Positions 2,070 through 56,028 are shown, counted from the first letter of the stretch. The stretch: DNA of 64,000 nt from Acetobacteraceae bacterium (GCA_965198825.1 CBDAQB010000002.1:431209-495208); one strand, 5' to 3'. Translations and numbers: made by a program. Notes: generated by a model from the letters alone, not told the origin.

Positions 2070-3325
2070 CCATCGCCATCGTCGCGCATACCCATCCGTC
2101 GGTCAGCAAAGGCGGTGCCGAGATCGCGGCCTTTGCGCTCTACGAGGGGCTGCTGGCGTCGGGTACAGAGGCCATCTTCATCGCCCTCTGCCATGAGCAG
2201 GACCGCGAGTCGCTAAGGCTGGGGTCGGACCGCGAGTTCGCCATCATGACGGACCCGATGCGCTACGATCATTTCTACCAGCTCGCCTCGCCTGACGTGT
2301 GGCGGCAATTGTCGGCGATCCTGCGCGGCCGTGACGTACGTCTGGTGAATTTCCACCACTTCCTCGGCCTCGGCGTGAACACGCTGCACCGGCTGGTGTC
2401 CGACACCGGCATCCCTTTCGTGGTGACGTTCCACGAGTTCCTGGCGATCTGTAACCACCATGGGCAGATGGTCACGAGGCCGGCGCGCCGGCTGTGTGAC
2501 ATGGCGAGTCCAGAGGCGTGCAGCGCCTGTTACCCGGAGCATTCGCGCGCCCAGTTCGCCCGAAGAGCCACGCTGATCTGCGAGGCGCTGATGCCCGCGG
2601 CGGCCTTCGTCTCGCCCAGCCGCTTCCTGGCGGACCGGATGATCGCCTGGGGACTGCCTGCCGACCGGTTCGCTGTGATCGAGAACGGGCTGCGGCGCGT
2701 GGAGGCGCCTGTGCCGCCGAGGCGGACGCGCGGGAAGCCTTGGGTATTCGGCTATTTCGGCCAGCTCACGCCATTCAAGGGCGGTGATATCCTGCTCGAC
2801 GCGATCGAAAACCTCGGGCAATCGGCGGAGCATGGCATTCGGCTGCGGCTGCACGGCACGCTCGTCGGGCAGCCGCCGGAGTTCGTCAAACGCTTCGAGG
2901 CAGCGTTCGCGTCGCAGGAATGGGCGCGCTTCCTGGGGCCCTACGACAATGCCGACGTCGGCGCGCTGATGAGCGCATGCGACTACGTGCTCATGCCGAG
3001 CACCTGGTGGGAAAACTCGCCGGTCGTCATTCAGGAGGCGTTCGCCGCAGGACGCCCTGTGATCTGCACAGGGATAGGCGGTATGGCCGAGAAAGTGCCC
3101 GACAGGCAGGCGGGGCTTCATTTTCGTCGCGGCGATGCGGCCGATCTGGCCCGGGTGATGCGAGAGGCGGCCGACGATGTGCTCTACGCCGCGCTTTGCT
3201 CGCAATTGCCGGGAGTGATGGATGGGGCTGCGATGGCGCGCGCCTACTTGGCGCTGTTTGAGCGGATGGGGGTAGGAAGCAGTTCTTTTTTGAAAAAAAG
3301 AACCAAAAAACTTTTGCGAACTTAG
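2066..3325 (+). CDS. Glycosyltransferase family 4 (GT-B)
   Basis: N-terminal GGAEI motif, C-terminal PSTWWENSPVVIQEA; 4-nt overlap with upstream stop; last 16 codons come from repeat A1. Confidence 0.85.
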   Translation: MTIAIVAHTHPSVSKGGAEIAAFALYEGLLASGTEAIFIALCHEQDRESLRLGSDREFAIMTDPMRYDHFYQLASPDVWRQLSAILRGRDVRLVNFHHFLGLGVNTLHRLVSDTGIPFVVTFHEFLAICNHHGQMVTRPARRLCDMASPEACSACYPEHSRAQFARRATLICEALMPAAAFVSPSRFLADRMIAWGLPADRFAVIENGLRRVEAPVPPRRTRGKPWVFGYFGQLTPFKGGDILLDAIENLGQSAEHGIRLRLHGTLVGQPPEFVKRFEAAFASQEWARFLGPYDNADVGALMSACDYVLMPSTWWENSPVVIQEAFAAGRPVICTGIGGMAEKVPDRQAGLHFRRGDAADLARVMREAADDVLYAALCSQLPGVMDGAAMARAYLALFERMGVGSSSFLKKRTKKLLRT

Positions 3326-3406
3326 GCTGGGCCATCGTCACGATCTCGGTCCCATAGCCCAAAAGTTATTTGCTTCTTTTTTTCAAAAAAGAAGCGCTGC
3401 CTTCCT
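3275..3406. repeat. AT-rich inverted-repeat element, family A copy 1 (complete)
   Basis: Left arm GTTCTTTTTTGAAAAAAAGAACCAAAAAACTTTT, 45-bp spacer, right arm AAAAGTTATTTGCTTCTTTTTTTCAAAAAAGAAG; TA at both flanks. Confidence 0.95.
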
Positions 3407-3514
3407 TACTTACTACTACCCACGTCTGTAAAATCGCCTCCGCTGGAGTGAAGCTTCAGTGATAGCATCAAACCACGCTTGATTCTGTCGCGCCGATGAA
3501 CATACGTTAGGCGG

Positions 3515-4513
3515 ATGTATTTATCGGGCAAGGCAATGGTCTCAGCGGAACGCAAGTTGCCGGTTTCACGCTTGATGGCTGTGTTAATTGCAGGGGCCTG
3601 TCTGTTGGCCAGCGGCAGCGCGCAGGCGCAGCACCGCACGGTTCGGATCGGCTACCAGAAATACGGCAATCTCGTGCTGGAGAAGGTGCGGGGATCGCTG
3701 GAGAAACGGCTGGCGCCAATGGGCGTGAGCGTGACCTGGACAGAATTTCTGGGCGGGCCTGCGCTGCTGGAGGCAATGGGCGGCGGAAGCGTGGATTTCG
3801 GCATTGCGGGCGACACGCCGCCGATTTTCGCGCAGGCTGCCGGGGTGAAGCTCGCCTATGTCGGCGTGGAGCCGGCGGCGCCGCATGGGGAGGCGCTGAT
3901 CGTGCTGCAAAGCTCGCCGATCAAGACCATTGCGGATCTCAAGGGGAAGCGGGTGGCGCTGAACCGCGGATCAAACGTGCATAATCTGCTGGTGCAAGTG
4001 CTGGCGGAGGCGAACCTGACGCCTGCTGATATTCAGACGGTGTTTCTCAAGCCCTCCGACGCACGGCCGGCGTTCGAGAACGGCAGCGTTGATGCGTGGG
4101 TGATCTGGGATCCCTATCTTGCGGCCGCGGAAACAGCGCTCCTCACGCGCAAGATTGCGGACGGCGTCGCGCCTGACGGCAAGGTGGTGGACGAGAACCG
4201 CGAGTATCTGCTGGCGAGCGCGGAGTTCGCGTCGCGCCAGCCCGATCTCGTCAAGGCCATTCTGGCGGATCTCGCCGAGACCGAAGCCTATGCGTCGGGT
4301 CATCGCGCACAGCTGACGGCGTTGCTGGCGCCTGAGATGGGCATGGATCCCAAGGCAGTGCAGCGCGCCGTCGATCGGCTGTCGTTCGGCGTGCTGCCTG
4401 TGGATTCAAAGATCGCCGCAGGGCAGCAGGCGATCGCCGACACATTGGCAAAACTCAATCTCATTCCGGACCCGGTGGACATCCACGAGGCCCTTCCCGC
4501 CCACGCGCTTTAG
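3515..4513 (+). CDS. ssuA: Aliphatic sulfonate ABC transporter substrate-binding protein
   Basis: Signal peptide; [24 protein letters not shown] motifs; operon with ssuD/C/B. Confidence 0.9.
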
Positions 4514-4526
4514 GGACAATTCGACC

Positions 4527-5690
4527 ATGCAAGTTCTTTGGTTCCTGCCGACACACGGCGATGGACGCTATCTGGCGACCCAGGTCGGCGGCCGTGCCCT
4601 GACGTTCGACTATTTGCGCCAGGTGGCGCAGGCGGCCGACCAGTCCGGCTATTATGGCGTGCTGCTACCGACGGGGCGCTCCTGCGAGGATAGCTGGGTG
4701 GTGGCCTCCACGGTGGCGCCGTTTACCAAGCAGCTGCGCTTCCTGGTGGCGCTGCGCCCCGGGCTGGTGTCGCCCGTCATGGGCGCGCGCATGGCGGCCG
4801 CACTCGACCGCGCGACGGACGGGCGGCTGCTCATCAACGTCGTCACCGGCGGCGATCCGGTTGAGCTCAAGGGCGACGGCATGTGGCTGGCGCACGACGA
4901 GCGCTACGGGCTGACGGACGAGTTCCTGCAGGTGTGGCGCCGAGTCATGTCGGGCGAGAGCGTGACGTTCGAAGGCAAGCACATCCATGTCGAGGACGCG
5001 CGCCTCGCCTTTCCGCCTGTGCAGACGCCTTATCCGCCGCTGTGGTTCGGCGGCTCTTCGGCAGCCGGCATCGATGTCGCGGCAGAACAATGCGACGTGT
5101 ATCTCACCTGGGGCGAGCCGCCGGCCGCTGTCGCGGAAAAGATCAAGGTGGCACAAGCAGCCGCCGAAAAGCGTGGCCGTCGATTCAAGTTCGGCATCCG
5201 CATGCACATCGTGGTGCGCGAAACACGCCAGGCCGCCTGGGACGCTGCGAACGACCTCATCCGCTATGTCGACGAGCAAGTAATCGCCAATGCCCAGAAA
5301 GTGTTCGCACGCTACGACAGCGTGGGGCAGCAGCGCATGGCCGCGCTGCACGGCGGCGACAAATCGAAGCTGGAAATCAGCCCCGACCTCTGGGCCGGCG
5401 TGGGCCTCGTGCGGGGCGGCGCGGGCACGGCGCTCGTCGGTGACGCGGACACCGTGGCTAAGCGCCTGATCGAATATAGCGATCTTGGCGTCGATAGCTT
5501 CATCCTCTCGGGATACCCTCATCTCGAAGAGGCGTACCGCGTCGCGGAATTGCTGTTCCCACGCCTGCCTTTGTCGCATGGCACTATGAAGATCGGCAGC
5601 GATGTCGCTTTGAATGGACCGTTCGGAGAGATCATTGCCAATGAGCGTATGCCTAAGTCGGCTTCTCCTGTGATGGCTGCTGCTTCTTGA
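4527..5690 (+). CDS. ssuD: FMNH2-dependent alkanesulfonate monooxygenase
   Basis: [40 protein letters not shown] motifs. Confidence 0.95.
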
Positions 5691-5853: not shown

Positions 5854-6627
5854 ATGACAACGAGCCGTACCCGTCAGGCACTCCTCAGCTGGGTAGTGCC
5901 CATCCTCCTCGTTGCCGTCTGGGAACTCGTCTCCGAAACAGGCATCGTCTCGGTCCATAAATTGCCGCCGCCGCATCAGGTGGTGGTGGCCGGATGGAAG
6001 ATGCTGCTGAAGGGCGAGCTGGTGCGCGATGTGCTCGTCTCGACAGCACGCGCAGCCGCAGGGTTTGCAATCGGCGGAGGGCTAGGCTTCATCTTTGGGC
6101 TTTTCGCCGGCGTCTGCCGCGCCGCGGAAACGACGGTGGACAGCTCGCTGCAGATGCTGCGCATGGTGCCGCATCTCGCCTTGATCCCGCTGATCATTCT
6201 TTGGTTCGGCATCGGCGAGTCGGCGAAGATCTTCCTCGTGGCGCTCGGCGTGTTCTTCCCGATCTACTACAACACCTACCACGGCATACGCGGCATCGAC
6301 GATGGGCTGCTCGAAATGGCGCGCATCCAGGGCCTGGGCAAATGGGCGCTGTTCCGGGAAGTGATCTTTCCCGGCGCGCTGCCTTCCATCCTTGTCGGCG
6401 TGCGCTACGGACTTGGCATTATGTGGCTGACGCTCATCGTGGCGGAGACCATCGCCGGCAATGCCGGGATCGGCTTCATGACGATGAACGCCCGTGAGTT
6501 TATGCAAACCGATGTCGTGCTGCTGGGCATCGTTCTCTACGCGTTACTCGGTAAACTGATCGATGTCGGCGCGCGCCGGATCGAAGGGAGTGCACTCGCA
6601 TGGCATCCGTCCTTCGGCAGCAACTGA
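5854..6627 (+). CDS. ssuC: Sulfonate ABC transporter permease
   Basis: Hydrophobic; [24 protein letters not shown]-region motifs. Confidence 0.9.
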
Positions 6628-7415
6628 ACCCGTTCGCGGACGCGCTCCCACGCGAACGCCCGGCGTCGCGCGCCTTCGAGCTGCCGGCGCCCGCAAACCG
6701 CAACCGCGGGCTGCCGATCGCAGTCAACGGCATTGCCAAAAGCTTTGGCGGCCGCTCGGTTCTTCGCAAGATCAGCCTCGATATTGCCCCTGGCCAATTC
6801 GTGGCCGTCGTCGGGCGTAGCGGTTCGGGCAAGAGCACGCTGCTGCGCCTTCTCGCCGGTCTCGAGGCGCCGGACGAGGGGAATGTGCTGCTCGGTGGCC
6901 GTTCGCCGCAGGAAGCTTCGGCCGCCCTGCGCATCATGTTCCAGGACGGAAGGCTGCTGCCGTGGCGTTCGGTAATTGCCAACGTAGCGTTGGGGCTGCC
7001 CCGTGCGGCAAGGCAGCGGGCCGTGGACGCGCTGGCGTCAGTCGGGCTCGCCGACCGTGCGGACGAGTGGCCTCGTGTGCTGTCGGGTGGGCAGAAGCAG
7101 CGGGTGGCGCTGGCGCGTGCGCTTGCTGCGGAGCCTGGTCTGATCCTGCTTGATGAGCCGCTCGGCGCCCTTGATGCGCTGACACGGCTTGAGATGCAGG
7201 CGCTTATCGAAGATTTGTGGCGCCGCCTTGGATTTTCGGCTGTTTTGGTAACGCATGATGTGGCGGAAGCCGCTCTACTCGCGGATCGGATCTTGCTGAT
7301 CGAGGATGGCGGGATTGCTCTCGATATCGCGGTGGATCTGCCTCGCCCAAGGCGGCCGGGGCCTGAGGTGGCCGCGATCGAACAGAAGATCTTGGGGCAT
7401 CTGTTGAAGGGGTAG
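6600..7415 (+). CDS. ssuB: Sulfonate ABC transporter ATP-binding protein
   Basis: Walker [14 protein letters not shown] signature, LLDEP Walker B. Confidence 0.9.
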
Positions 7416-7545
7416 CGAAGCACTTCTTTTTTGAAAAAAAGAAGCAAAAACTTTTGGACTGCGGGACCGAGATCGCGACGCAGACTCAGCCTAAATTCGC
7501 AAAAGTTCCTTTGTTCTTTTTTTCAAAAAAGAACTGCTTTCTTTC
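7415..7545. repeat. Family A copy 2 (complete), fills the gap between convergent stop codons
   Basis: Both arms present, 45-bp spacer; bounded by ssuB TAG and the GGDEF gene TAG. Confidence 0.95.
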
Positions 7546-8912
7546 TAACCCACCATCTCTAGCTTTTCGAACAACGAGAACCGCCCCTTTCCAGTCCGCT
7601 TGGCGTGATACAGCGCCTGGTCGGCTTCGCTGAGCAGGGCTTCGGGTGTTTCGTGGTGGATATCGGCGATGACGATACCGACGCTAATGCCGATATTCAC
7701 TTCCTGGCCTTCCGGGCCGAAGCGGCGCGGCATGTTGGTGACGATGCGCGCGGCGACAACGGCGGCTTCGTCGGCGCTGTTGATGCGGTCGAGAAGCATG
7801 GCAAATTCGTCGCCGCCTAGGCGGGCGACGAGATCGTCCTGGCGGTAGACGCAGCCTTTGAGGAAGAGGGCGGTTTCGCGTAGCAGGTCGTCGCCGGCGG
7901 CGTGGCCGAGTTGGTCGTTGACCTGCTTGAAGCCGTCGAGGTCCATGGTGACGATGGCGAAGGAGGCGTCCCCGCGGCGCCGGCGCGGAACCAGGCGGGT
8001 CATGAGGCGGTCCATGAATTGCGCGCGGTTGGGCAGGCCGGTGAGGAAGTCGTGGCGGGCCATGTGGGCAACTTCGGCTTCGGCCAGGCGGCGGAGCTTG
8101 TCCGACGCGAGAAGCCAGCCCGCGTTGTGCCAGATGAGCACAGCCATGGAGAGCATGGTGAGCATGACCATGACCGCGACGCCGATTTGCTGGCTGTAGA
8201 GGCCGGCTGTTTCGCCTTCCTGCCTGAGCCAGCCTAGGGCGACGGGGATGATGACGGCCGCGGGGAGAAGCGCACGGCTGGAGCGGCCGGCGGGGCCGCG
8301 GTCGGAAATGCGGGCGACAAGGCCGCGGTCTGCGGTTTCGAGCAGGATGAAGGCGGCGAGTGAGAGGAAGGCGATGGCGGCGTGCAGCGCCATCGGGTGG
8401 AGGGCGGCTACCACATAGAAGGCGGCGACGCCGTAGAGGTGGCCGACCATGGTGAAGACGGCGATGAGGGCGGCGACGAACGCCATGGCTTGGAGGGCTA
8501 CCACGTCGCGCTTAGAGCGTCGGCCCATCAGGAGCACGGCGGCGCTGATCAGGACGAAGCAGCCGGCGGTGTTAGGCGCGATCCGGCTGGGGCGAGCGTA
8601 GCCGGTGGTGAGCTGCGAAGCGAAGAAACTAGTGTCGACGTTAAAGTGGGTGCCGAGGACCAGGTCGGCGAGCTTGAGGACGCCGATGAGGCCGGCGGCG
8701 GCGATCAGGATCGTGCCGGCCGTGTTGGCGACACGGCCACCGCGAAACCGGACGATCAGGCCGGTACTGATGAGGAGGAAGGCCACAGCGGTTGCTGGGT
8801 TCATGGTGACCGAGCCGAGGCCGATGCGTTTCAACGGCTCTATGGCGAACGTCCAGCCGGCGAGCACAAGCGTGCCTATCGCAAACGGGATTGTCGCCAG
8901 CAGCCGTATCAA
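7545..8912 (-). CDS. Membrane-bound diguanylate cyclase (GGDEF)
   Basis: Multi-TM N-terminus; DFLTGLPNR, DLDGFKQVND..GH..GD, intact GGDEF and RxxD I-site (RQDD). Confidence 0.9.
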   Translation of the reverse strand: MIRLLATIPFAIGTLVLAGWTFAIEPLKRIGLGSVTMNPATAVAFLLISTGLIVRFRGGRVANTAGTILIAAAGLIGVLKLADLVLGTHFNVDTSFFASQLTTGYARPSRIAPNTAGCFVLISAAVLLMGRRSKRDVVALQAMAFVAALIAVFTMVGHLYGVAAFYVVAALHPMALHAAIAFLSLAAFILLETADRGLVARISDRGPAGRSSRALLPAAVIIPVALGWLRQEGETAGLYSQQIGVAVMVMLTMLSMAVLIWHNAGWLLASDKLRRLAEAEVAHMARHDFLTGLPNRAQFMDRLMTRLVPRRRRGDASFAIVTMDLDGFKQVNDQLGHAAGDDLLRETALFLKGCVYRQDDLVARLGGDEFAMLLDRINSADEAAVVAARIVTNMPRRFGPEGQEVNIGISVGIVIADIHHETPEALLSEADQALYHAKRTGKGRFSLFEKLEMVG

Positions 8913-9112: not shown

Positions 9113-9985
9113 ATGACCTATCGCAAGCTTCTCCTGCCGCTCACTGCCGATGCCGCGGGCGAGGCGGCGCTTGCCACCGGGTTGATGCTAGCGAAGCAGT
9201 GGGGCGCGCATCTCACCTGCCTCGCCGTGCAGGTCGATAGCCGGGATGTCGCGCCGCTGGCGGGCGAAGGGCTGTCCGGGACAATGATCGAGGAGATGAT
9301 GCACGCGACCGAGCGGCAGAACGCCGAGGCCGCCCGGCAGGCGGCTGCGTTGTTTGCGCGCGCCGCGGAAACGCTGGGGGTCGAGGTCGCTGAGAGCGGA
9401 GCTGCCGCGCGGCCGGGCGAAGCGAGCACCAGCTTTACGGCAGTTGTCGGACGAGAGGAGGAACTCGTGCCCGCGCTGGCGCGGCTAAGCGACCTCACCG
9501 TTTTGCCGCACCCGAAACGCGAGGCGGACGCAGCCGGATCAGACGCGCTTCACGCCGTGCTGTTCGACAGCGGGCGGCCGGTTCTCATCGCGCCACGCCA
9601 GGCGCCGGCGTCGCTGGGAACGCGCTGCGCCGTCGCCTGGAACGGCACGCATCAGGGAGCGGCCGCACTCGCTGCGATTTTGCCTTGGCTGCGGAAGGCG
9701 GAGGCGGTGCGGGTGCTTTACGCGGCTGAATATCAGAGGCGCGATCCGCCGGCTTCCGAGGTGCTGCCCTATCTCGCCATGCATGGCGTATCGGCAGATG
9801 CGGCCGAGTTCCGGGTGGAAGGCGGCGCTGTCGGGGCCGGGTTGCTGGCGGGGGCTGCTGCGTTCGGCGCCGATCTGCTGGGCATGGGAGCTTATGCGCA
9901 CTCGCGTTTGCGCCAGGCTATTCTGGGCGGTGTGACGCGGCATGTTCTGGGGAACGCGGCTCTGCCGGTTTTGATGAGTCGGTAA
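9113..9985 (+). CDS. Universal stress protein (tandem UspA domains)
   Basis: DSGRPVL, VAWNG, DLLGMGAYAHSRLRQAILGGVTRHVL. Confidence 0.9.
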   Translation: MTYRKLLLPLTADAAGEAALATGLMLAKQWGAHLTCLAVQVDSRDVAPLAGEGLSGTMIEEMMHATERQNAEAARQAAALFARAAETLGVEVAESGAAARPGEASTSFTAVVGREEELVPALARLSDLTVLPHPKREADAAGSDALHAVLFDSGRPVLIAPRQAPASLGTRCAVAWNGTHQGAAALAAILPWLRKAEAVRVLYAAEYQRRDPPASEVLPYLAMHGVSADAAEFRVEGGAVGAGLLAGAAAFGADLLGMGAYAHSRLRQAILGGVTRHVLGNAALPVLMSR

Positions 9986-10117
9986 GAGAGCAAGGACTTC
10001 TTTTTTGAAAAAAAGAAGCAAAAAACTTTTTCCGATGTGGGACCGGGATCGTGGGTCACGCCGAGCCCAAGTGGCAAAAGTTTTTTGGTTCTTTTTTTCA
10101 AAAAAGAACTGCTTTCT
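9985..10117. repeat. Family A copy 3 (complete)
   Basis: Both arms, 45-bp spacer; bounded by convergent TAA stops. Confidence 0.95.
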
Positions 10118-11016
10118 TACTTCTCTTTGATGAGATCCACCGCCCCTTTTGTATCGTTACCCGTCACCTTCGGCGTAGTCGCCGACAAATTCATCAGCAA
10201 TGCGGTGCGCTGGCCAGTGTCGTTTGTAAAATGGTTGTTCTGCACGAAGATTTCCGGGGTTGGTTGATCGACCCCTTCGGCGCCGATGGCGATGGCGGCG
10301 TTTGTGTTGCCGGTGTGGGGGCCTTTTTCGAGCGTGTTGAAGCGGACGATGACGGTGCCGCCGTTTGGAGCTTCGACAAGGTAGCTTGAGGTGCCATCAG
10401 CGCCGTCGGTGATGTCGTTCCCAAGGACAACGGTCCGGGCGGCGCGGGATTTGATGGCGTGACCGTCGCGCGTGTTGGTGAAGCGGCTGCTGACGACACG
10501 AAGTTCGGCGATGCGGCCGGCGTAGATGGCGTGGGCGCAGGCGTCGCCACAGTAGCCGTTGCGGTCGAAGACGCTGTTCTCGACGAGGATTTTCGAGTCG
10601 GGCGAGGGGTTGGCGAGGATGCCGTCCTGGTTGTCGATGAACTGGACGTGGTCGACCGTGAGGTTTGCGCCTTCTTCGCGTATGCCGGCGCCATTGCCGT
10701 CCGGCACGCGGGCGCCGCCTAGGGTGAGATTGCGTATGGTGACGTTGTTGCCTTCGATGACGAGGATGCCCTTGCCGTCGCAGGTGCGGCCGGCGAGGAG
10801 GGTTTTTCCTGGCGTGCCCATGCCTTCGATGGTGATGTTGTTGGCACGCACCGTTGCGCAGTCCTGGTACTGGCCGGGCTCGATTTGGATGGTGTCGCCA
10901 TCGTCGGCGTCGGCCACTGCGCCGGAGACGCGGGCGTAGCCTTTGCCAGGGCCAACATGCAGCGTGCCGGCGGCCGCTGTGAGTGGTAGGAGAAGGAACA
11001 TCACGGCCAGGCGCAT
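10117..11016 (-). CDS. Secreted right-handed parallel beta-helix protein (pectin-lyase-like fold)
   Basis: Start re-set to ATG 11016 (MRLAVMFLLLPLTAAAG signal peptide); Asn/Gly-rich repeats such as GNGAGIR, NQDGIL, GHAIKSRA. Confidence 0.75.
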   Translation of the reverse strand: MRLAVMFLLLPLTAAAGTLHVGPGKGYARVSGAVADADDGDTIQIEPGQYQDCATVRANNITIEGMGTPGKTLLAGRTCDGKGILVIEGNNVTIRNLTLGGARVPDGNGAGIREEGANLTVDHVQFIDNQDGILANPSPDSKILVENSVFDRNGYCGDACAHAIYAGRIAELRVVSSRFTNTRDGHAIKSRAARTVVLGNDITDGADGTSSYLVEAPNGGTVIVRFNTLEKGPHTGNTNAAIAIGAEGVDQPTPEIFVQNNHFTNDTGQRTALLMNLSATTPKVTGNDTKGAVDLIKEK

Positions 11017-11115
11017 CGGTGGGCTCCAGGGGCGGCGGGTTGCAGGCTTGCTGCTTAGCACACGTTTCTGTATCGGTTGCGCGCCGGCTGGCACCGGCTT
11101 GGAGGCTTTATCCTC

Positions 11116-13065
11116 ATGTGCGGCATAGCGGGCATTTTCTCGGCCGACGCGGGTGCGCAGCCCGAGGGTCGCGCCGTTCGGCGTATGACGGATGCGCTCA
11201 GCCACCGTGGACCGGACGGTGAAGGTCTGCACGAGGATCCGGGCGTGGCCCTGGGACATAGGCGGCTTGCGATCATCGATCCCGAGGGCGGGCATCAGCC
11301 GATGTACAACGAGGACGAGAGCATCGCGATCGTCTTCAACGGCGAGATCTATGATTTTGCGACGCTTCGTGACGAGCTTGCGGCAATGGGGCACGTGTTC
11401 CGCAATCGCTGCGATACGGAAACCATTGTGCATGCCTGGGAAAGCTGGGGGCCGGCTTGCGTCGAGCGGCTCGATGGGATGTTCGCCTTCGCTTTGTGGG
11501 ACAGGCGTCTGGGGCAACTGTTTTGCGCGCGGGACAGGTTGGGCAAGAAGCCGTTCTACTATGCGATGGTGGATGGCGACTTCGTCTTCGGCTCCGAGAT
11601 GTGCGCGCTGACGACGATCGCTGGCTTGGATCGTCGTATCGATCCGCGGGCGGTGGATGATTTCTTCGCTTACGGCTACGTGCCCGAGCCCGAGACGATT
11701 TTTACGGGCGTGAAGAAGCTGCCAGCGGGGCACACGCTTCTTGTGGAGCGGGATGCGTCGCGCACGCGCATCATGCCGCTTCGTCCGCGGCGTTACTGGC
11801 AACCGCTCGTAGCAACGACGGCAATCAGCGAGGCGGAGGCGGCGCCTATGCTGCGGGCGCATCTGGCGCGTGCGACGAAGTCGCGGTTGATCGCCGATGT
11901 GCCACTGGGGGCGTTCCTGTCTGGTGGCGTCGACTCGAGTGCGGTGGTGGCGACGGCTGCGGGATTGCGCCGTGAGAAGCTGGATACTTTCACGATCGGT
12001 TTCGACGGGAGCGAGGACGAGACGCCTTACGCGAATGAAGTGGCGGCGCGTTATGGGACGCGCCAGCATGTGGAGCGGGCGGCGGCAACCGATATGATCG
12101 ACGGGGCGCGTAGCCAGGCGGCTGCGTTCGGCGAACCTTTCGGCGACAGCTCTTCGGTTCCTACGATGACCGTCTGCAGGCTGGCGCGGCGTCATGCGAC
12201 CGTGGCGATTTCCGGTGACGGCGGCGACGAAGTTTTCGCGGGCTACCGGCGGACACGCTGGCACTCGCTGGTGAGCGGCGCGCGCCGGTATCTGCCTTCC
12301 GGCGTGCGTCGTCATGCCGTCGGTCGGCTGGCGGCGTTGTATCCAAAGCTCGATCGGGCACCGCGGTTCTTGCGGGCGAAGCATACTCTGACGGAACTCA
12401 GCCTCGATGCCGCCATGGGTTATGCGAGCACGGTGACGAAGCTGCATGAACGGCAGCGGCGTGCGCTGTTCACGCCGCGGTTGAGGGCCGCGGTCGAGGG
12501 ACATGCCCCGTTTGCGCGTATCGCCAGCATCATGGAGGCGGCTGAGGACGCCGACCCGGTTTTGCAGGCGCAGCTTGCGGATCTGGCGACTTGGCTGCCA
12601 GGCGACATTCTGACGAAGGCGGATCGGGCGAGCATGGCGGCTTCGCTGGAGATGCGGGCGCCGTTCCTGGATGCTGCGTTCGTGTCCTGGGGGTTGAGCC
12701 TGCCGGCTTCCCTGAAGATCAAAGGCGGCGAGGGCAAGTATATCCTGAAGAAGGCGCTGGAGCCGTTGCTGCCGCGCGACATCCTGTATCGGCCGAAGCA
12801 GGGGTTTACCAGCGATCTCGCGGGGTTCTTCCGCAGCGACATGCATCGCGTGCGTGCTGTGCTTCTGAGCGACGCGTTCCTGTCGCATGATCTGTTCGAC
12901 GCTGCTGCAATCGCGAGGGTTCTGGACGAGCATGCGGCTGGTTCGATGAACCATGCACAGGCGATCTGGCTGCTGCTGGCGTTCGAAGGGTTTTTGCATA
13001 CGCTCGAGCCGTCTGTGCCGGTGGAGCGCGCCGAGGCGCCAGCCATGGTGGTGCATGCGGGCTGA
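11116..13065 (+). CDS. asnB: Asparagine synthase-like glutamine amidotransferase (polysaccharide-associated AsnB family)
   Basis: Ntn N-terminus MCGIAG at ATG 11116; HRGPDG, GHRRLAIID, FNGEIY, LSGGVDSS, SGDGGDE. Confidence 0.85.
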   Translation: MCGIAGIFSADAGAQPEGRAVRRMTDALSHRGPDGEGLHEDPGVALGHRRLAIIDPEGGHQPMYNEDESIAIVFNGEIYDFATLRDELAAMGHVFRNRCDTETIVHAWESWGPACVERLDGMFAFALWDRRLGQLFCARDRLGKKPFYYAMVDGDFVFGSEMCALTTIAGLDRRIDPRAVDDFFAYGYVPEPETIFTGVKKLPAGHTLLVERDASRTRIMPLRPRRYWQPLVATTAISEAEAAPMLRAHLARATKSRLIADVPLGAFLSGGVDSSAVVATAAGLRREKLDTFTIGFDGSEDETPYANEVAARYGTRQHVERAAATDMIDGARSQAAAFGEPFGDSSSVPTMTVCRLARRHATVAISGDGGDEVFAGYRRTRWHSLVSGARRYLPSGVRRHAVGRLAALYPKLDRAPRFLRAKHTLTELSLDAAMGYASTVTKLHERQRRALFTPRLRAAVEGHAPFARIASIMEAAEDADPVLQAQLADLATWLPGDILTKADRASMAASLEMRAPFLDAAFVSWGLSLPASLKIKGGEGKYILKKALEPLLPRDILYRPKQGFTSDLAGFFRSDMHRVRAVLLSDAFLSHDLFDAAAIARVLDEHAAGSMNHAQAIWLLLAFEGFLHTLEPSVPVERAEAPAMVVHAG

Positions 13066-14122
13066 CGGGCCGCCTTCGCTTCTGCACGTGTTTCCGAGTT
13101 TCGTGGTGGGCGGCGCGCAGATGCGGTTTGCGGCACTCGCCAATCATTTTGGCGACGCGTTCAGGCACAGCATCGTTGCCATGGATGGGCGCACGAGCGC
13201 GCGTGATTTATTGCACAGCGAAGTGCCTGTGCAGTTTCCAGCCATCGAAACGCGCGGCGGCAACATGGCAGCGCGGGTGGCACGTTTTGCCGGGTTCTTG
13301 CGTGAGACACGCCCGCGCCGGCTGATTACCAGCAACTGGGGCAGCATCGATTGGGCCATCGCGCGCCTTTTTGCCGGCACGGCGCATGTGCATATGGAGG
13401 ATGGATTTGGGCCGGAGGAGCGGTCGACGCAATTGCCGCGTCGCGTTCTGACACGGCGCGCCGTCTTGCGCAGGAGTGAAATCATCCTGCCGTCACACAC
13501 GCTTTTGCGGCTTGCTACGGACCGTTGGCGATTGCCGAAACGGCGGTTGCATCATATTCCAAACGGCATCGATCTATCGCGATTTGCGCCGCGTGTTGGC
13601 CGGCGACAGGGGCCGCCAGTAATCGGCACCGTTGCCGCCTTGCGTGCTGAAAAGAATATCGGACGGATGATCGAGGCCTTTGCAATCGTCCGGGCGCAGG
13701 GCGAGGCAAGGCTGGTGATCGTGGGTGATGGCGCCGAGTTGCCGAAGTTGAGGGCTCAGGCCGAAGGAATGGGCTTGACCGGCGACGTGGAATTTACGGG
13801 GCATAGTGCGAGCCCGGAGCGGTTTTATGCCGGCTTCGATGTTTTTGCGTTGTCCTCCGATACAGAGCAGATGCCGCTTTCGGTGCTGGAGGCGATGGCG
13901 GCGGGGTTGCCCGTAGCTTCGACGGACGTCGGTGACGTGCGATGGATGCTTGCCGAAGAGAACGGGCCGTTTGTTGGCGAGAAGTCCGCAGAGGGGCTTG
14001 CTTCGGCGATGTTAGGTTTGCTGGCGAAGCCATCAGCCATCGGCAAAGCCAATCGTTTCAGGGCGGAGGCAGAGTTCTCGGATAGCGTGATGTTCCAGCG
14101 CCACCTGGCACTCTGGGCTTAA
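13055..14122 (+). CDS. Glycosyltransferase family 4
   Basis: GGAQMRF, HMEDGFG, IPNGID, SSDTEQMPLSVLEAMAAG; overlaps asnB stop. Confidence 0.85.
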   Translation: MRADGPPSLLHVFPSFVVGGAQMRFAALANHFGDAFRHSIVAMDGRTSARDLLHSEVPVQFPAIETRGGNMAARVARFAGFLRETRPRRLITSNWGSIDWAIARLFAGTAHVHMEDGFGPEERSTQLPRRVLTRRAVLRRSEIILPSHTLLRLATDRWRLPKRRLHHIPNGIDLSRFAPRVGRRQGPPVIGTVAALRAEKNIGRMIEAFAIVRAQGEARLVIVGDGAELPKLRAQAEGMGLTGDVEFTGHSASPERFYAGFDVFALSSDTEQMPLSVLEAMAAGLPVASTDVGDVRWMLAEENGPFVGEKSAEGLASAMLGLLAKPSAIGKANRFRAEAEFSDSVMFQRHLALWA

Positions 14123-14200: not shown

Positions 14201-14224
14201 CTGCGAATCCGCGATGAATTGAGC

Positions 14225-43245: not shown

Positions 43246-43278
43246 ATCTTTGGGCGGTGCTTGAGGAGAAGCTGGGCG

Positions 43279-49786: not shown

Positions 49787-50155
49787 ATGAGTACTGAGGA
49801 CATGCAAGTGGATGTGCTGCTGGTAGAGGACGATGACCTCGTCCGCGACTGCCTGGCAGAGGCGTTGCACGATGCTGGCCTGGATATTGAAGGAACCTCG
49901 TCGGGCGAGGACGCGCTTCTCGTGCTGCGTCGTGCCGCGGCGCCAAAGGTTTTGGTGACCGATATCAATCTCGGCCAGGGCATGGATGGGTTGGCTTTCG
50001 CGCGCGCCGCCCGCGAGGTTTATCCTGGTCTCCCGGTGGTTTATATCAGCGGCCGCTATGGCGAGTTGCGTGGGTTATCCAGCCGCGAGCGCTTCCTGCC
50101 GAAGCCGTTCACCGCCCCTACCCTGCTACGCGCCATCGCCGAAGTTCAGGCCTGA
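49787..50155 (+). CDS. Single-domain response regulator
   Basis: LLVEDD, LVTD phosphoacceptor, YISG, PKPF. Confidence 0.88.
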   Translation: MSTEDMQVDVLLVEDDDLVRDCLAEALHDAGLDIEGTSSGEDALLVLRRAAAPKVLVTDINLGQGMDGLAFARAAREVYPGLPVVYISGRYGELRGLSSRERFLPKPFTAPTLLRAIAEVQA

Positions 50156-51579
50156 TCGCTCCTGGGCTTTGATGCGGCCAAACTATCGAAAAGCCGCTCC
50201 CATTCCCTCCTGACGGACCCTGTTTCGAAGCGCGCCAGAACAGGGCCGCCCGGCGCCAAACTGTCCGATATTCCAGGCCCCAAGGCGCGCTCGATCGCCG
50301 CGGCGATTGCCTCTGGGTCGTAGGGGTCTGCGTAGATGACGGCATCGCCGAAGATCCCCCGGAATACCGGTATGTCGGATACGACGCACGGGGTGCCGGC
50401 CTGCATCGCCTCGAGAGGCGCGTAGCCGAAGCCTTCGTTGAAGGACGGCAGCGCGAAGCAGGCGGCGCCGCGCATCAGAACTTGCAACTCGTCCTGTGGC
50501 ACGCTTTGCAAATGCAGGATCTGTCCGCTCGCCACGCCGGGCCGAATCTGAGAGAGGATCGGCTCTTCCTGCCACCCTGGCCCGCCGACAATGATGAGGC
50601 GAAGCCCGCCGCCGGTACGGGCGGCTGCGCGCTCCCAGCCACGTATGAGCCCCGGGTAGTTCTTTCTCGGTTCCAAGGTCGAGACGGCCAACACGTAGCG
50701 CATGCCCTCCGACGGTGGCGACCAGCCGGGCGGAGCCGCCGCCCCGCCGAGCGCGCGGAAGGTCAGGTGCCGCTCGATAATGGCGCGGGTGGTGAGGCCG
50801 GCGACCGCCGGGACCGCCGGGGCCAGGGCACATGGGATGACCACAGCGGTCGCTTCCCGCCGCGGATCCAGGGCCAGGAGATTGTCTCGGCTTTGGACCG
50901 AATTGCACACGAAGATCGCATCGGTGTCGCAGGCCCTGACCAGCCGTGAATGCGCGAGCCCCATCTGCCAGCGCCCTACCGTATCCGCATCCGTCACCGG
51001 AACCGCGTCGTGAAACCGCATGATCTGGCGAACGCCGGGCGGCAGGCGAACCGGCCTTGGCATGCAGAACAGCACCGCTTCGAAGCCTACCGCATCCAGC
51101 CGCTTGTGCAGGGGCGGCGGCAGGCGGAGCGCGCGATCGATCACCGAGGCTACAGACAGGTCGGTCGCCTGAAATGAACGCGCCAACACAGCGCTACGCC
51201 GGTCAGGCGCCAGAGTTTTGCTGAACAGCACGCGCCAGATGGAGTCGCCTTGCCCCGCCCCCGCCGCGGGCAAGAGCGCGTGCCTGAGCCGAACCTGCTG
51301 GCTGATCGATCGGGCATGCTGCAGGAGGCTCAGCGGAAAGCGTTCGCGCGCCGGACCGTCCCAGTTGCGCTCCATGGCATGCAATACCGCGGCCGTGAGC
51401 GCCGGGGCATCCGGACCATCTGGGCGCAGCGTGGGCAGGTCGTGCCGGCCGGCCGGCATCAGCAAACCGGTCGGCTCTACGCCGTCCAGGTCGCAGAGCA
51501 TCGAAAAGATGAGCCTGATGTCTTGCGCGATGCCCACGTAGCCGCCGGCTGCGTGGGAGAGGTCTACTAGAAGGCGCAT
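50146..51579 (-). CDS. Glycosyltransferase family 4
   Basis: Start re-set to ATG 51579 (upstream ORF part is repeat A11); STLEPRKN, PSFNEGFGYAPLEAM. Confidence 0.85.
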   Translation of the reverse strand: MRLLVDLSHAAGGYVGIAQDIRLIFSMLCDLDGVEPTGLLMPAGRHDLPTLRPDGPDAPALTAAVLHAMERNWDGPARERFPLSLLQHARSISQQVRLRHALLPAAGAGQGDSIWRVLFSKTLAPDRRSAVLARSFQATDLSVASVIDRALRLPPPLHKRLDAVGFEAVLFCMPRPVRLPPGVRQIMRFHDAVPVTDADTVGRWQMGLAHSRLVRACDTDAIFVCNSVQSRDNLLALDPRREATAVVIPCALAPAVPAVAGLTTRAIIERHLTFRALGGAAAPPGWSPPSEGMRYVLAVSTLEPRKNYPGLIRGWERAAARTGGGLRLIIVGGPGWQEEPILSQIRPGVASGQILHLQSVPQDELQVLMRGAACFALPSFNEGFGYAPLEAMQAGTPCVVSDIPVFRGIFGDAVIYADPYDPEAIAAAIERALGPGISDSLAPGGPVLARFETGSVRREWERLFDSLAASKPRSDQA

Positions 51580-51581: not shown

Positions 51582-51721
51582 GGAAGGAAGAAAGGTCTTC
51601 TTTTTTGAAAAAAAGAAGCAAAAAACTTTTGCGACCTGGGACCGAGATCCTGGGAACGCACGGCCTGAACGAACAAAAGTTTTTTGGTTCTCTTTTTCAA
51701 AAAAGAACATGCTTTCTTGCC
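51582..51721. repeat. Family A copy 11 (complete), fills the argG-GT4 gap
   Basis: Both arms, 44-bp spacer; TA at both flanks. Confidence 0.95.
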
Positions 51722-52995
51722 TAAAGCGTGCCCCCACGCCGCCCCGCCGTAGCAGCCAGCCGCAACCGCAGCGCGTTGAGCTTGATGAAGCCCTGGGCAT
51801 CGACCTGGTCATAAGCGCCCTGGTCATCCTCGAAGGTCACGACGCGCGTAGAATAAAGGCTGTTGGGGCTCTCGCGCCCAATGACGATCGTATTGCCCTT
51901 ATAGAGTTTTAGTCGGACTCGGCCGCTGACCGAGCGTTGGCTTTCGTCCACCATGGCCTGCAGCATCCGCCGCTCGGGCGAGTACCAGAAGCCGTTGTAG
52001 ATCAGCTCGGCATAGCGCGGCGCGAAGCTGTCCTTCAGGTGGGCGGCTTCTCGGTCTAGCGTGATGCTCTCGATGGCGCGGTGGGCGACATGGAGGATGG
52101 TGCCGCCTGGCGTTTCGTAGATGCCGCGGGACTTCATGCCGACGAAGCGGTTCTCCACCAGGTCGAGGCGCCCGATGCCGTTATCGCGGCCGAGGTCGTT
52201 AAGCCGCGCGAGAAGGGAAGCGGGCGAGAGGGGTTTGCCGTCGATCGCCGTGGGGTCGCCATGCTCAAAATCGATCGTGATGATGGTCGGTTTGTCGGGC
52301 GCCGCTTCGGGGCTGATGGTGCGCTGGAAGACGATCTCGTCCGGTTCTACCGCCGGGTCTTCGAGGATTTTACCTTCCGACGATGAGTGCAGGAGGTTCG
52401 CGTCCACCGAGAATGGCGCCTCGCCACGCTTGTCGCGGCTGATCGGGATCTGGTGGGCTTCCGCAAACTCTAGCAGCTTGGTCCGGCTGGTAAGCTCCCA
52501 TTCGCGCCAGGGCGCGATGACGCGAACGTCGGGTTTGAGGGCGTAATAGGCGAGTTCGAAACGGACCTGGTCGTTGCCTTTGCCCGTGGCGCCGTGGGCG
52601 ACGGCATCGGCGCCTGTCGCTTCGGCGATTTCGATCTGTCTTTGCGCGATCAAGGGGCGGGCTATGGAGGTGCCCAGAAGATACTGGCCTTCGTAGAGGG
52701 CATTGGCGCGGAACATCGGAAAGACGAAGTCGCGCACGAAGGTCTCGCGCAAATCCTCGACGAAGATTTCACGAACGCCGGCCTGCTCTGCCTTGCGGCG
52801 GGCGGGTTCGAGTTCCTCGCCCTGGCCGAGGTCCGCGGTGAAGGTAACGACTTCGCAGCGGTAGGTGGTCTGCAGCCAGCGGAGGATGACGCTGGTGTCC
52901 AGGCCGCCCGAATAGGCGAGAACCACCTTCTTTACCGTTTTGTCCGATGCTGCGGCACCGTGGTCCAGTCCAGCAGGAGCTGTCGCGTTCGTCAC
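51721..52995 (-). CDS. argG: Argininosuccinate synthase
   Basis: [43 protein letters not shown]; start uncertain (GTG 52995). Confidence 0.95.
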
Positions 52996-53153
52996 CTTCA
53001 CCGCCTCGGCTGCATCTCGTACGGCCTTAACGCCCGCAGCATCCCTGGGCAAGCAGCAGTGGCTTTGGGCCCATGAGGTGCCTGGACACGCGAGACGTGA
53101 TGTGCGGACGCTTTTTTCGGCCTCAGCCCGCCTGTATGGTTTCAGGCAACATC

Positions 53154-54086: not shown

Positions 54087-54491
54087 TTAGGCGGCGCGGG
54101 TGTTGGGGCTGGGGGTGATGGGTTGGCCTGGGGGGAAGGTCTCGTCCATGGCGACCCAGGTGTCTGAGAGGGCGGTGGCTAGGGCGTTGGCGAGGGCGCA
54201 GGCGGCGATGGCTTCGCCGTTGTCGCAGGCGGCTTGAAGGCTGGCAGCGAGGGTCTGGGCACGTCGGGCGCCAATGGTGCCGGCCATGGCTATGAGATTG
54301 TGGGCGTGATTGCGCAGGTTCGGCAGGTCGCAGGCGGCCGAGAAGGCATTCAGGGCGTCTGCCCGCAGCTTTGCGTCCTGCCTGCATTTCTCCAGGAGGG
54401 CACCGAGCCGGTCGGACGAGAGGATAGCGCTCAGGCGGACGAGCACATCACTGTCGAGAAGCGGGCACTCGGCTGACGGCGTGACCGTCAC
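54087..54491 (-). CDS. Hpt (histidine phosphotransfer) domain protein
   Basis: LRNHAHNLIAMAGTIGA; GTGA overlap with the upstream response regulator stop. Confidence 0.75.
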   Translation of the reverse strand: MTVTPSAECPLLDSDVLVRLSAILSSDRLGALLEKCRQDAKLRADALNAFSAACDLPNLRNHAHNLIAMAGTIGARRAQTLAASLQAACDNGEAIAACALANALATALSDTWVAMDETFPPGQPITPSPNTRAA

Positions 54492-55129
54492 CACCCGCCG
54501 CCGCCACGGACGCGGGCGCCGTCCGTGCTGCTAAGCCGCGCTTCCTCGAAGCTCTTGAGCTGGTAGGAGACGCAAGCCAACAGGGCCGGAAAATCCAGCG
54601 GTTTGGCATACATCGCGTCGAACTCCACGCGTGAAGAGGCTTCGTGCATCGTCAGGCTTTCAGGCGAGGCGGTGATCGCGATCAGGCGCGGGCATTCCGG
54701 CCCGTCGAACACGTCGCGCATCAGCCTCGCCGTCGTTAGCCCGTCGATCTTGGGGATCTGATAGTCGATGAGCGCAAGCGAGTAGCCGCCTGTCCGCGCC
54801 TTGGTCACTGCCGTCAGACCGTCTGCCGCTGAATCGGTCGCGAAACCGCAGCTCAGCAGAATGTCGGTCAGGAACATGCGCTGCAGATCGTCGTCCTCGA
54901 CCACCAGCACGCGCGGGGCGTTAATCTGGAGACCGCCGGAGGTCAGGGTGTATTCGGCTTGCGGCAGCTTGTAGGCGTTCTTAGAGCGCGTTACCGCACC
55001 CTGAGAGCTTGCCGCCACCAGCTTCGTCGGGGCGCCCGGATGGCTGGAGCGAGCGCCGCGTGGTGGCGTGAACCCGGCGAGCGAGGCGATGGAAGCATCC
55101 TTGGACAAGCGCCGGCCCTTTCTCTCCAC
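54488..55129 (-). CDS. Response regulator receiver protein with unknown N-terminal extension
   Basis: VLVVEDD, LALID, IDGL, IAITA, AKP; start uncertain. Confidence 0.8.
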   Translation of the reverse strand: MERKGRRLSKDASIASLAGFTPPRGARSSHPGAPTKLVAASSQGAVTRSKNAYKLPQAEYTLTSGGLQINAPRVLVVEDDDLQRMFLTDILLSCGFATDSAADGLTAVTKARTGGYSLALIDYQIPKIDGLTTARLMRDVFDGPECPRLIAITASPESLTMHEASSRVEFDAMYAKPLDFPALLACVSYQLKSFEEARLSSTDGARVRGGGGW

Positions 55130-55398
55130 CCGGGCGCTTCGACCCGCGGCGATTTCACGCTAGCGGGCAGGGGTTAGCAGGGGGTTAAGCGCTCCAAGGG
55201 TGGCGGCAGGGCGGCAACAGTGCCGCATTCAATTCCTTGTTGAATGACCACGCTCGCACCCCATCATCTTGCGGCGACTCCGCTGCGGTCGCTAACTTTC
55301 TGATCGTGGCATCGTGTTCGTGGCACTGGTTCCACGGCGCGGTCCACGCATGACGGCTTGTTCCAGTTGGCCTTCCTCCACCCCCTGGGGAGACCCCT

Positions 55399-55899
55399 AT
55401 GTCATTCCACATGGAAACCGCACATAACGCCGCCAATCCGCTCGACATGATGGAGCAGATCGTCTCGGCCAACGAATGGGTGTTCGACCGCCGGTCGGAT
55501 GCCGAAATGGCCGCCGAGGCGCCGGGCAAATGGTGTGACTACGGCTTGTTCTTCAGCTGGTCGGCCGAAATCTCAGCCATGCATTTCACCTGCACCTTCG
55601 ACCTGAAAGTGCCCGCACCACGCCGCGCTGCCCTGTACGAGCTGCTGTCGCTCGCCAACGAGCGGCTCTGGATCGGCCATTTCGGCATGGATTCGGACGA
55701 CGGCATGCCGCTGTTCCGCCATGCGGTGCTGCTGCGCGGCGCGCCGGGCGCCTCTGCCGAAAGCCTTGAGGACATGGTCGATATCGCCATCACCGAGTGC
55801 GAACGCTTCTACCCGGCGTTCCAGTTCGTGCTGTGGGGCGGCAAGAGCCCGGCCGAGGCGCTGGAGGCGGCGATGCTGGAGTGTGTTGGGGAAGCGTAA
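55399..55899 (+). CDS. YbjN domain-containing protein
   Basis: NPLDMMEQIV, ANERLWIGHF, ECERFYPAFQFVLWGGK; upstream of proC. Confidence 0.85.
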   Translation: MSFHMETAHNAANPLDMMEQIVSANEWVFDRRSDAEMAAEAPGKWCDYGLFFSWSAEISAMHFTCTFDLKVPAPRRAALYELLSLANERLWIGHFGMDSDDGMPLFRHAVLLRGAPGASAESLEDMVDIAITECERFYPAFQFVLWGGKSPAEALEAAMLECVGEA

Positions 55900-56028
55900 G
55901 AAAGGCCTTCTTTTGAAAAAAAGAAGCAAGAAACTTTTGCGACTTAGCGCCGGTGCGCCGGAAAGGCCGGGCCCAAGGATACAAAAGTTTTTTGGTTCTT
56001 TTTTTCAAAAAAGAACTGCTTCCTTCCT
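55899..56028. repeat. Family A copy 12 (complete), fills the ybjN-proC gap
   Basis: Both arms, 44-bp spacer; abuts the proC TTG. Confidence 0.95.

Follow-up and report, generated by a model that had tools for sequence, protein, structure and literature searches.

REPINs, which are known from Pseudomonas and E. coli, are REP doublets mobilised by RAYT (Y1 HUH) transposases. E. coli BIMEs bind gyrase and IHF, BIMEs and REPs have roles at mRNA 3' ends, and some E. coli REPs reportedly lie within 15 nt of stop codons (Liang, Rudd & Deutscher 2015, Mol Cell 58:431). REPs tagged by GTAG/CGTC have been described by Di Nocera et al. 2013 (PMC3733652), where Acetobacteraceae lack CGTC repeats, and REPs also serve as targets for insertion sequences (PMC1525189). 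The repeat family presented here resembles REPINs in that both have two foldable short palindromes inverted around a short spacer, and in that both are extragenic with hundreds of copies placed at gene ends and are targets of insertion sequences. The differences are that the arms of this family are A/T-only stems in a GC-rich genome without a GTAG/CGTC head, and that there is no RAYT gene in this genome or in most of the carriers. With the BIMEs and REPs of E. coli it shares palindromic units near stop codons, enrichment between convergent genes and a plausible role, here putative, as 3'-end protector or gyrase site, but the sequence is unrelated and the unit is a fixed composite of 135 bp and not a mosaic. 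Correia elements (NEMIS) in Neisseria and ERIC/IRU in enterobacteria are likewise palindromic, 100-160 bp long and inverted at their ends, often co-transcribed with their neighbours, with TA at the boundaries, overlapping stop codons and no assigned transposase. In contrast to those, each arm here is a palindrome in itself and has covarying pairs, and the bacterial family is another one. We give about an even chance to the explanation that this is a non-autonomous palindromic repeat of Acetobacteraceae, similar to REPIN, BIME and Correia, with arm hairpins that are under selection and act in the transcript.

The window, that is the whole stretch of 64,000 nt that was analysed (GCA_965198825.1 CBDAQB010000002.1:431209-495208, Acetobacteraceae bacterium), contains 35 matches to the 20-nt arm core TTCTTTTTTGAAAAAAAGAA with at most 3 mismatches on both strands, and the core was matched in 0 of 100 shuffles of the window. 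Sequence reading and a repeat finder show that the 12 AT-rich loci claimed in a preliminary description are all real: eight are complete, one has a decayed arm and three are single arms. The consensus is indeed the arm given there, with G/C at its position and then CAAAAAACTTTT, and the guess of possibly hundreds of copies per genome was right. With a profile made from the copies in the window, 709 loci are detected in the host genome of 4.4 Mb and 64% GC, of which 469 are complete, and an arm profile finds 1174 arms, distributed on 459 pairs and 256 single arms. The family makes up 1.9% of the genome DNA and fills about 700 gaps at gene ends. The repeat had not been recognised as a named family in the preliminary description, and this is supported: no family in Rfam 15 reaches the gathering threshold for the repeat, with only a tRNA passing in the window, and a literature search found no paper describing it. 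With a lax Rfam threshold, one copy gives only sub-threshold matches to generic long-hairpin families.

Complete copy 1 (3275..3405, cores 3283-3393) lies between the genes for a GT4 glycosyltransferase (2066..3325) and an NMT1-type binding protein (3515..4513), and the GT4 frame extends 17 codons into it. The whole gap from the TAG of an ABC ATPase gene (6600..7415, +) to the TAG of a GGDEF gene (7545..8912, -) is taken up by complete copy 2 (7416..7544, cores 7424-7533), and complete copy 3 (9986..10116, cores 9998-10108) reaches from stop to stop between a Usp-domain gene (9113..9985, +) and the gene for a 1008-aa beta-helix protein (10117..13143, -). A single right arm at 14145..14203, consisting of inner motif, core (14171-14190) and tip, is found downstream of a GT4 gene (12953..14122). 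In the copy at 16269..16395 the left arm is intact (core 16286-16305) whereas the right arm has decayed, and this copy is located between the start of an amine-oxidase gene and the stop of an epimerase gene (16398..17306, -). A complete copy with a longer centre at 23303..23450 (cores about 23312-23437), where the left arm is one T/A shorter, follows the TAG of an HlyD-type gene (22029..23303), and a single left arm at 24644..24720 (core 24656-24674) adjoins the stop codon of a Tim44-like gene (24720..25388, -). A complete copy at 26692..26835 (cores 26708-26818) takes up the gap that separates the secB TAA (26149..26691, +) from the stop of a gene for 137 aa (26836..27249, -). The complete copy at 34168..34310 (cores 34187-34296) separates obg (34311..35318, -) and proB (about 32969..34150, -), which are transcribed in the same direction. 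A single left arm with centre at 43191..43280 (arm core at 43210) lies between the stops of an MFS gene (41940..43190, +) and a DUF779 gene (43279..43707, -). The last two complete copies are found at 51582..51720 (cores 51598-51707), between the argG stop (51721..53052, -) and the start region of a GT4 gene (about 50146..51570, -), and at 55899..56028 (cores 55906-56015), between the ybjN stop (55399..55899, +) and the next gene on the + strand (56029..56829).

The unit of about 135 bp is built up by five parts: a purine tip (NAAG)n, an arm, an inner motif CAAAAAACTTTTG, a GC-rich centre of 42 nt and the mirror image of the first three. The arm is a self-folding A/T palindrome of 22 nt, S-TTCTTTTTT-GA-AAAAAGAA-S. 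In the consensus of 469 copies the arms end in S-TTC and the tips are purines, and there is neither a GTAG nor a CGTC head. In most copies the length from core to core is 110 +/- 1 bp, and the arm matches in the 459 inverted pairs are 39-45 nt apart. The inverted tips and arms and the uniform small size are MITE-like features.

Each arm is its own palindrome, and pairing between the arms is mismatched at the closing positions. Within the left arm the closing pair is GC in 245 copies and CG in 204, and within the right arm CG in 296 and GC in 161, but a comparison of the closing positions between the two arms gives GG or CC in about 82% of the copies. Other genomes have compensatory changes from T-A to C-G or G-C at pairs 2/19, 8/13 and 9/12. 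Among unique arm sequences, compensatory changes at pairs 8/13 and 9/12 number 13, compared with 8 and 10 one-sided changes, whereas at pair 2/19 they are fewer than the one-sided (12 versus 19). Orthologous arms in the genomes G004, G006, G008 and G014 bear differing compensatory variants. The one-sided changes, in tiny counts, do not have the G-U asymmetry expected of an RNA hairpin.

The centres of different copies are related, with a median pair identity of 0.60 compared with 0.26 for shuffled sequences and up to 0.98 between nearest neighbours, which means that whole units were copied. They are of common ancestry, but their rate of change is 7-13 times that of the arms. The arms are 92-99% identical and the centres 50-85%, the arm value being inflated because both arms are needed for detection. 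Of 218 copies with equal length, 44 combine arms at about 92% identity with centres at about 50%, which is not expected if both parts are neutral. The arms are also kept at the orthologous site after 6600..7415, where the centres are unalignable and of unequal lengths and the flanking coding DNA is about 72% identical. Such persistence of arms around randomised centres argues for selection on the arms and not only mobility, and the near-unchanged hairpin arms point to a function.

A purely selfish MITE without host function would have to owe its arm conservation to detection bias, ectopic gene conversion or repeated insertion at hot spots. There is an age spectrum in the family, with some nearly identical pairs, and arm identity declines as the centre diverges (r = 0.60). 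The 256 single arms and several decayed arms fit this explanation too, the unalignable centres at orthologous sites could be independent insertions, and 1174 near-identical arms of 34 bp are open to gene conversion. However, the 44 copies with diverged centres and conserved arms are unlike the neutral expectation and the arm changes are compensatory and not random. Moreover, an exact arm of 33 nt is common to Acidiphilium, Gluconacetobacter, Roseomonas and many MAGs, and conversion within a genome cannot explain a sequence that crosses genera. We find a purely selfish element rather unlikely.

Among the sampled alphaproteobacteria the repeat family is restricted to Acetobacteraceae: it was found in 86 of 301 Acetobacteraceae genomes, representing 48 of 143 genera, and in none of 397 other alphaproteobacterial genomes. 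The copy number varies across genera from about 5 to more than 1000 (candidate counts at first look were about 5 to 1267). Confinement to one bacterial family, inverted pairs at gene ends and arms kept better than neutral DNA are properties shared with the DUS/USS of Neisseria and Haemophilus, where terminator pairs offer a model for a non-mobile host signal that arises in place and is kept by biased uptake and recombination. Such an origin is very unlikely for this repeat, given that only a third of the genera carry it with a 200-fold variation in copy number, and that its conserved arm of about 34 nt plus tip is far beyond the known uptake signals of about 10-12 nt. The related centres of separate copies imply copying of whole 135-bp units, while uptake sequences arise in place. 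DUS/USS are short motifs of naturally competent taxa that arise by mutation and are also present in coding DNA, and the repeat was not assigned to them in view of whole-unit copying, an arm of more than 34 nt and near absence from coding DNA (40 of 709 loci inside called genes, with gene context taken from crude gene calls).

The suggestion that the element is non-autonomous is borne out by its behaviour, with related centres, whole-unit copying and variable copy number across genera. It had also been proposed to look for empty sites, and congeneric species do differ in whether orthologous sites are filled or empty. The gap 4513-4527 is empty in G000, G008 and G011 and filled in G006, G004 and G014, a site near 14620 has a copy in G006 and G004 alone, and 4-5 species have one after 6600..7415. 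The site of copy 2 is likewise occupied in G004 and G008, while a single arm is present there in G006 and a remnant in G014. At the site of copy 3, the orthologous gene in relatives is followed by a single arm, by a degenerate copy or by no repeat at all, and at the 14145..14203 site the copy is complete in G008 and a single arm is present in G006. That arms persist where centres have been randomised goes beyond what the preliminary description expected. TAA or TAG is found at the tip boundary in 55-62% of the arms compared with 8% at random, and in 47-53% of the arms where no gene ends. A target-site duplication was not demonstrated, as TAA/TAG at both ends was observed in 153 cases with 151 expected for independent ends, and tip lengths differ. 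Because the two ends are independent, the TA duplication of Correia and IS630/Tc1 elements is likewise not shown here.

The mobility is probably provided in trans. The analogy with REPIN and RAYT fails as a mechanism, because Y1/RAYT transposase (PF01797) has no match in this genome (93.8% complete) and Y1 transposase is missing from about 77 of the 86 genomes that carry the repeat. PF01797 matches occur in only about 9 of the 86 and are mostly weak, and eight of nine genomes with strong matches lack the repeat. An IS630-type transposase flanked by the arms had been put forward as well, but the sole IS630-type (DDE_3) element, present in 12 copies, has ends (TACCCCGAC...) unrelated to the repeat tips and uses the arms as targets. 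The two multi-copy insertion sequences of the genome are unrelated to each other and are inserted into arms, and their ends are not shared with the repeat. A screen of the window for multi-copy insertion sequences and DDE_3 genes found neither. Apart from insertion sequences inserted into elements, no arm pair encloses a transposase gene here or in 138 loci of other genomes, and no full-length element combining the ends of the repeat with a transposase was found. 

The repeat occupies 41% of the gaps between convergent genes, 17% of those between tandem genes and 9% of those between divergent genes. The stop codon is usually within the purine tip, and where a gene runs into the repeat the distance from the end of the stop codon to the arm core is in most cases 6-16 nt. 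The arm type has no polarity relative to the direction of transcription (70 versus 58, p = 0.33), and the orientation of the centre is weakly biased (87 versus 60, p = 0.03). The peak in convergent gaps, where converging transcription piles up supercoils, might indicate a structural site in DNA, either a binding or wrapping site for gyrase or a nucleoid protein, as for BIMEs, or a cruciform that acts as a supercoil sink. The A/T palindromes are at a fixed distance around the GC-rich centre even though centres vary, the near lack of polarity is in agreement with such a site, and covariation up to the innermost pair beside the 2-nt centre is more easily reconciled with strict palindromy or a DNA cruciform than with the loop of an RNA hairpin. 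On the other hand, no IHF-like consensus is readable in the arms, we know of no protein that binds them, and a symmetric dimer alone does not account for paired changes in the half-sites. We consider this explanation unlikely.

In the favoured explanation, the family spread over a long period by copying of whole units into short gaps after stop codons, where A/T-rich or TA-containing DNA is tolerated in a genome with 64% GC. After insertion the centre would drift freely, while the arm hairpins and their spacing would be held by purifying selection. The arms may well act in the transcript, where they would place a hairpin at a distance of 6-16 nt from the stop codon. Combined with the core of A6, stem and U6, they might make up a moderately strong terminator that works in both directions, or a protector of the 3' end, and they could perhaps also be the hairpin recognised by the copying enzyme.

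A two-way intrinsic terminator has a stable GC-rich stem-loop between an A tract and a U tract that follows directly. In 427 of 432 copies the helix of minimum energy (-21 to -24 kcal/mol) extends into both the A6 and the U6 tract. The stem adjoining the U tract is A-U rich and the centre folds no better than shuffles (mean z -0.68), and none of the copies was called in a simple scan for consensus terminators. The terminator reading is weak. SPRITE-like terminator repeats are also dispersed, with a stem flanked by A and U tracts, but differ from this family, in which the terminator features are weak and two extra arm hairpins and purine tips are present. Also speaking against a terminator, single arms are not found preferentially on the downstream side of the hairpin, and there are copies within likely operons, as between obg and proB and in the pair of binding-protein and monooxygenase genes.

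The tip resembles a ribosome-binding site (Shine-Dalgarno) with a TTG in the arm about 6 nt after it, and one frame is open through the consensus, so the copies could be read as encoding a small lysine-rich peptide, or else as a discrete small RNA gene. The chance of this is close to negligible: core-to-core lengths of 108, 109, 110, 111 and 112 are all common so that no reading frame is kept, no Rfam family is reached at threshold and the centre is poorly conserved.

Family A is a real and very abundant repeat that is restricted to one bacterial family, and literature searches based on taxa, keywords and sequence strings turned up no published account of it. The core TTCTTTTTTGAAAAAAAGAA has 35 matches in the window on both strands with up to three mismatches, and none in 100 shuffles at the same tolerance. 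Inspection and a repeat finder agree with the 12 loci listed in the preliminary description. Eight of these loci are complete, the one at 16286 has a right arm that has decayed, and those at 14171, 24656 and 43210 each consist of a single arm. Arms made of A and T only are conspicuous here because the GC content of the window is 60-69%. The assembly comprises 4.40 Mb in three contigs (window C2:431209-495208), and a profile made from the copies in the window detects 709 loci genome-wide, 469 of them complete, which bears out the earlier guess of hundreds of copies per genome. With an arm profile, 1174 arms are found (459 pairs and 256 single arms). Family A accounts for 1.9% of the genome (84.8 kb).

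The consensus of the 469 complete copies starts with a purine tip of NAAG units and continues with a closing base S, TTCTTTTTT-GA-AAAAAGAA, the complementary closing base, CAAAAAACTTTTG and a GC-rich centre of 42 nucleotides, after which the tip, arm and inner-motif parts return in mirror image. Conservation per position is 96-99% in the arms and 40-90% in the centres of these copies. About half of the copies measure 110 bp from core to core and most fall within 109-111 bp, and the orientation of the centre is flipped relative to the arm type in about one quarter (117 versus 44). A coding peptide is rejected because the length variants disrupt every reading frame.

The closing pair is complementary within the arm in 96-97% of copies and occurs in two forms, with 245 GC and 204 CG in the left arm and 296 CG and 161 GC in the right arm. 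When the same closing positions are compared between the two arms, about 82% of copies have GG or CC, which means that most elements combine one G-closed and one C-closed arm. This combination disfavours pairing from arm to arm and favours two local hairpins. One long hairpin across both arms is not what is kept, since variable positions of the tip and centre are paired in just 30-50% of copies. The arms of other genomes have double changes that keep the stem, from T-A to C-G at positions 8/13 (36 loci) and 9/12 (31 loci), and from T-A to C-G (17 loci) or G-C (9 loci) at 2/19. Counted as unique arm sequences, paired changes exceed one-sided changes at 8/13 and 9/12 (13 versus 8 and 10) and are fewer at 2/19 (12 versus 19). 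Different compensatory variants are found in the congeneric species G004, G006, G008 and G014 at one orthologous site. The compensatory evolution of the arms is unusually clear.

In the 218 copies of equal length, centre identities of about 50% go with an arm identity of 92%, and centre identities of about 85% with one of 99%, the arm figures being inflated by a detection that demanded both arms. From these identities the arms change 7-13 times more slowly than the centres. By this comparison, a neutral arm beside a centre at 50% could not hold an identity of 92%, even given the detection bias. Three species compared at the orthologous site that follows 6600..7415 have intact arms but centres that are unalignable and of unequal length.

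Pairs of centres have a median identity of 0.60, compared with 0.26 when shuffled, and nearest neighbours reach 0.98. The centres thus share ancestry, so whole units have been copied over a long period. The mobility proposed in the preliminary description is consistent with the orthologous sites, both filled and empty, found among congeneric species with genes that are approximately 70-83% identical in DNA. A gap of 14 nucleotides (4513/4527) is empty in this genome, G008 and G011 and holds a copy in G006, G004 and G014, between the genes for a binding protein and a monooxygenase. The site near 14620 is filled in G006 and G004 only, the site after 6600..7415 has a copy in four or five species, and the site after the gene for a 1008-amino-acid protein at 10117 is occupied in the relatives by a lone arm or a degenerate copy, or is empty. 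Joining the flanks of all complete copies to search for empty sites within the genome yielded only one paralogous pair, which was uninformative. A metagenome search for relatives at strain level, made through argG, had a best match of 88% protein identity and thus gave no near-identical flanks.

Family A was found in 86 of 301 sampled Acetobacteraceae genomes, representing 48 of 143 genera. A search of 397 genomes belonging to other families of Alphaproteobacteria found no copy. First-look counts range from about 5 to 1267 per carrier genome. The exact 33-nucleotide arm is present in Acidiphilium sp. PA, Gluconacetobacter liquefaciens DSM 5603, Roseomonas sp. GC11 and many MAGs, and a plasmid collection gave two unannotated matches, both on replicons of Pseudoroseomonas cervicalis. 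In several short-read assemblies of relatives a contig ends inside a family A arm (at the genomic place L113 and others, in the draft genome G007 and other drafts). Draft assemblies are thus broken up by the repeat, and their copy counts are too low.

Family A belongs to a known kind, the small palindromic intergenic elements, although it falls outside both the REPIN/RAYT systems and the insertion-sequence-derived MITEs when membership is tested. Compared with REP-RAYT, it is a REP-like doublet without a RAYT. The REPIN/RAYT mechanism, named as an analogue in the preliminary description, does not fit this genome, where the Y1/RAYT domain (PF01797) has no match. The domain was found in 19 of the 301 family genomes and in only about nine of the 86 carriers, mostly as weak matches. 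In Rfam, also named there for comparison, no family reaches its threshold. According to a survey, the Acetobacteraceae are without CGTC-type REPs (PMC3733652).

A search for an IS630-type transposase flanked by the arms had also been suggested. The sole DDE_3 genes of the genome are those of an IS630-family element in 12 copies, and its ends are unrelated to the tips of family A. Wherever a pair of arms encloses a transposase, an insertion sequence has landed inside an element. The IS630-family element (contig C3:415574-416862, L139, and 11 other places, none in the window) encodes 353-358 amino acids with DDE_3 and HTH domains, and its copies are at least 99% identical. All 12 lie within a family A arm or directly next to one, and nine share one position of the A6/T6 tract, with a flanking 2-bp TT/AA repeat. 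Of the five copies of an IS1595-like element (PF12762, 228-231 amino acids; contig C1:703071-704130, L140, and four other places, none in the window), four sit within the inner motif of an arm and have duplicated 8 bp (AAAGTTTT or AAAACTTT). As targets of two insertion sequences, the arms behave like REPs, which serve as insertion-sequence targets (PMC1525189).

Based on our own crude gene calls, family A is present in 41% of convergent, 17% of tandem and 9% of divergent gaps, and about one in six genes of this genome ends within 20 nucleotides of an arm. Such gene ends are similarly frequent across many members of the Acetobacteraceae, to which the industrial acetic acid bacteria belong. Genes enter from the outer side at 671 arms; TAG and TAA are the prevailing stops there, and the stop mostly ends 6-16 nucleotides ahead of the core, the distribution peaking at -9, -12 and -13. 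A TGA within the arm core is the stop of 39 genes genome-wide. TAA or TAG is found at the tip boundary in 55-62% of ends over all complete copies versus 8% in random windows, and in 47-53% of arms even without a gene ending there. The two ends of one copy are statistically independent in this respect (153 observed, 151 expected), so a TA duplication at the ends is possible at most. In the window, copies adjoin secB, obg/proB, argG, ybjN, several GT4 genes, an ABC ATPase and a GGDEF gene. One GT4 glycosyltransferase frame (2066-3325) has no stop before the first copy; it crosses the tip and left arm in 17 codons and terminates at a TAG within the centre.

With moderate confidence, we regard family A as a REPIN- or Correia-like element that is retained at gene ends because its arm hairpins are predicted to act on transcripts. 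The arm hairpin would form just beyond the stop codon, and the element would give a moderate two-way block at the 3' end. The A6-stem-U6 core resembles a two-way terminator, with a helix that extends into the A6 as well as the U6 tract in 427 of the 432 copies and has an energy of -21 to -24 kcal/mol. As a reading of this predicted fold, a two-way terminator is weak, because the base of the stem is A-U rich, the centre folds no better than shuffles (z -0.68), a simple terminator scan with the consensus called no copies, copies are found within likely operons, and single arms are neutral as to side. The prediction that single arms retain the side downstream of the hairpin failed, with 34 upstream-gene-stop arms versus 28 far arms in same-direction gaps; single arms associate more strongly with the gene running in from the outer side. 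A complete copy at 34168-34310 separates obg and proB, which are adjacent and codirectional, and strong termination between likely operon genes would split the operons.

The main rival to an action on transcripts is a role at the DNA level, either as a binding site for gyrase or nucleoid proteins or as a cruciform. One-sided arm changes, with too few substitutions to separate RNA from DNA hairpins, show no trend in the RNA direction. Arm type has no polarity with respect to the direction of transcription (70 versus 58, p = 0.33), and centre orientation has a weak bias (87 versus 60, p = 0.03). Rather unlikely, in our judgement, is a further reading in which a putative Acetobacteraceae-specific protein would recognise the arm, as single-stranded DNA or as RNA, by both its sequence and its structure, an A/T hairpin of 10 bp whose loop is fixed. 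Such a system would be apart from RAYT/REP and would either copy the element or mark gene 3' ends genome-wide, and the G-closed/C-closed rule would then keep each arm self-folded and unpaired with its partner. The compensatory evolution and family-wide conservation of the arms make what reads the hairpins a concrete and testable question.

Family A determines the stop codons and sometimes the final codons of genes, occupies 3' untranslated regions, breaks short-read assemblies at contig ends and draws insertion sequences. Given these effects and its abundance at gene ends, a curated model would improve annotation. For the engineering of alphaproteobacteria with GC-rich genomes, the element may also supply a compact module that works at 3' ends in both directions.

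The window also contains another repeat family, which is GC-rich and has the core GGCCAGGGGCTCTGCCCCTGGACCCC, at 5711-5748, 32897-32934, 32998-33040, 60858-60895 and 61003-61045. Its copy at 5711 is located in the gap between 4527..5690 and 5854..6627. G006 and G008 have a family A element at this site, which indicates that the two families can use the same kind of site.
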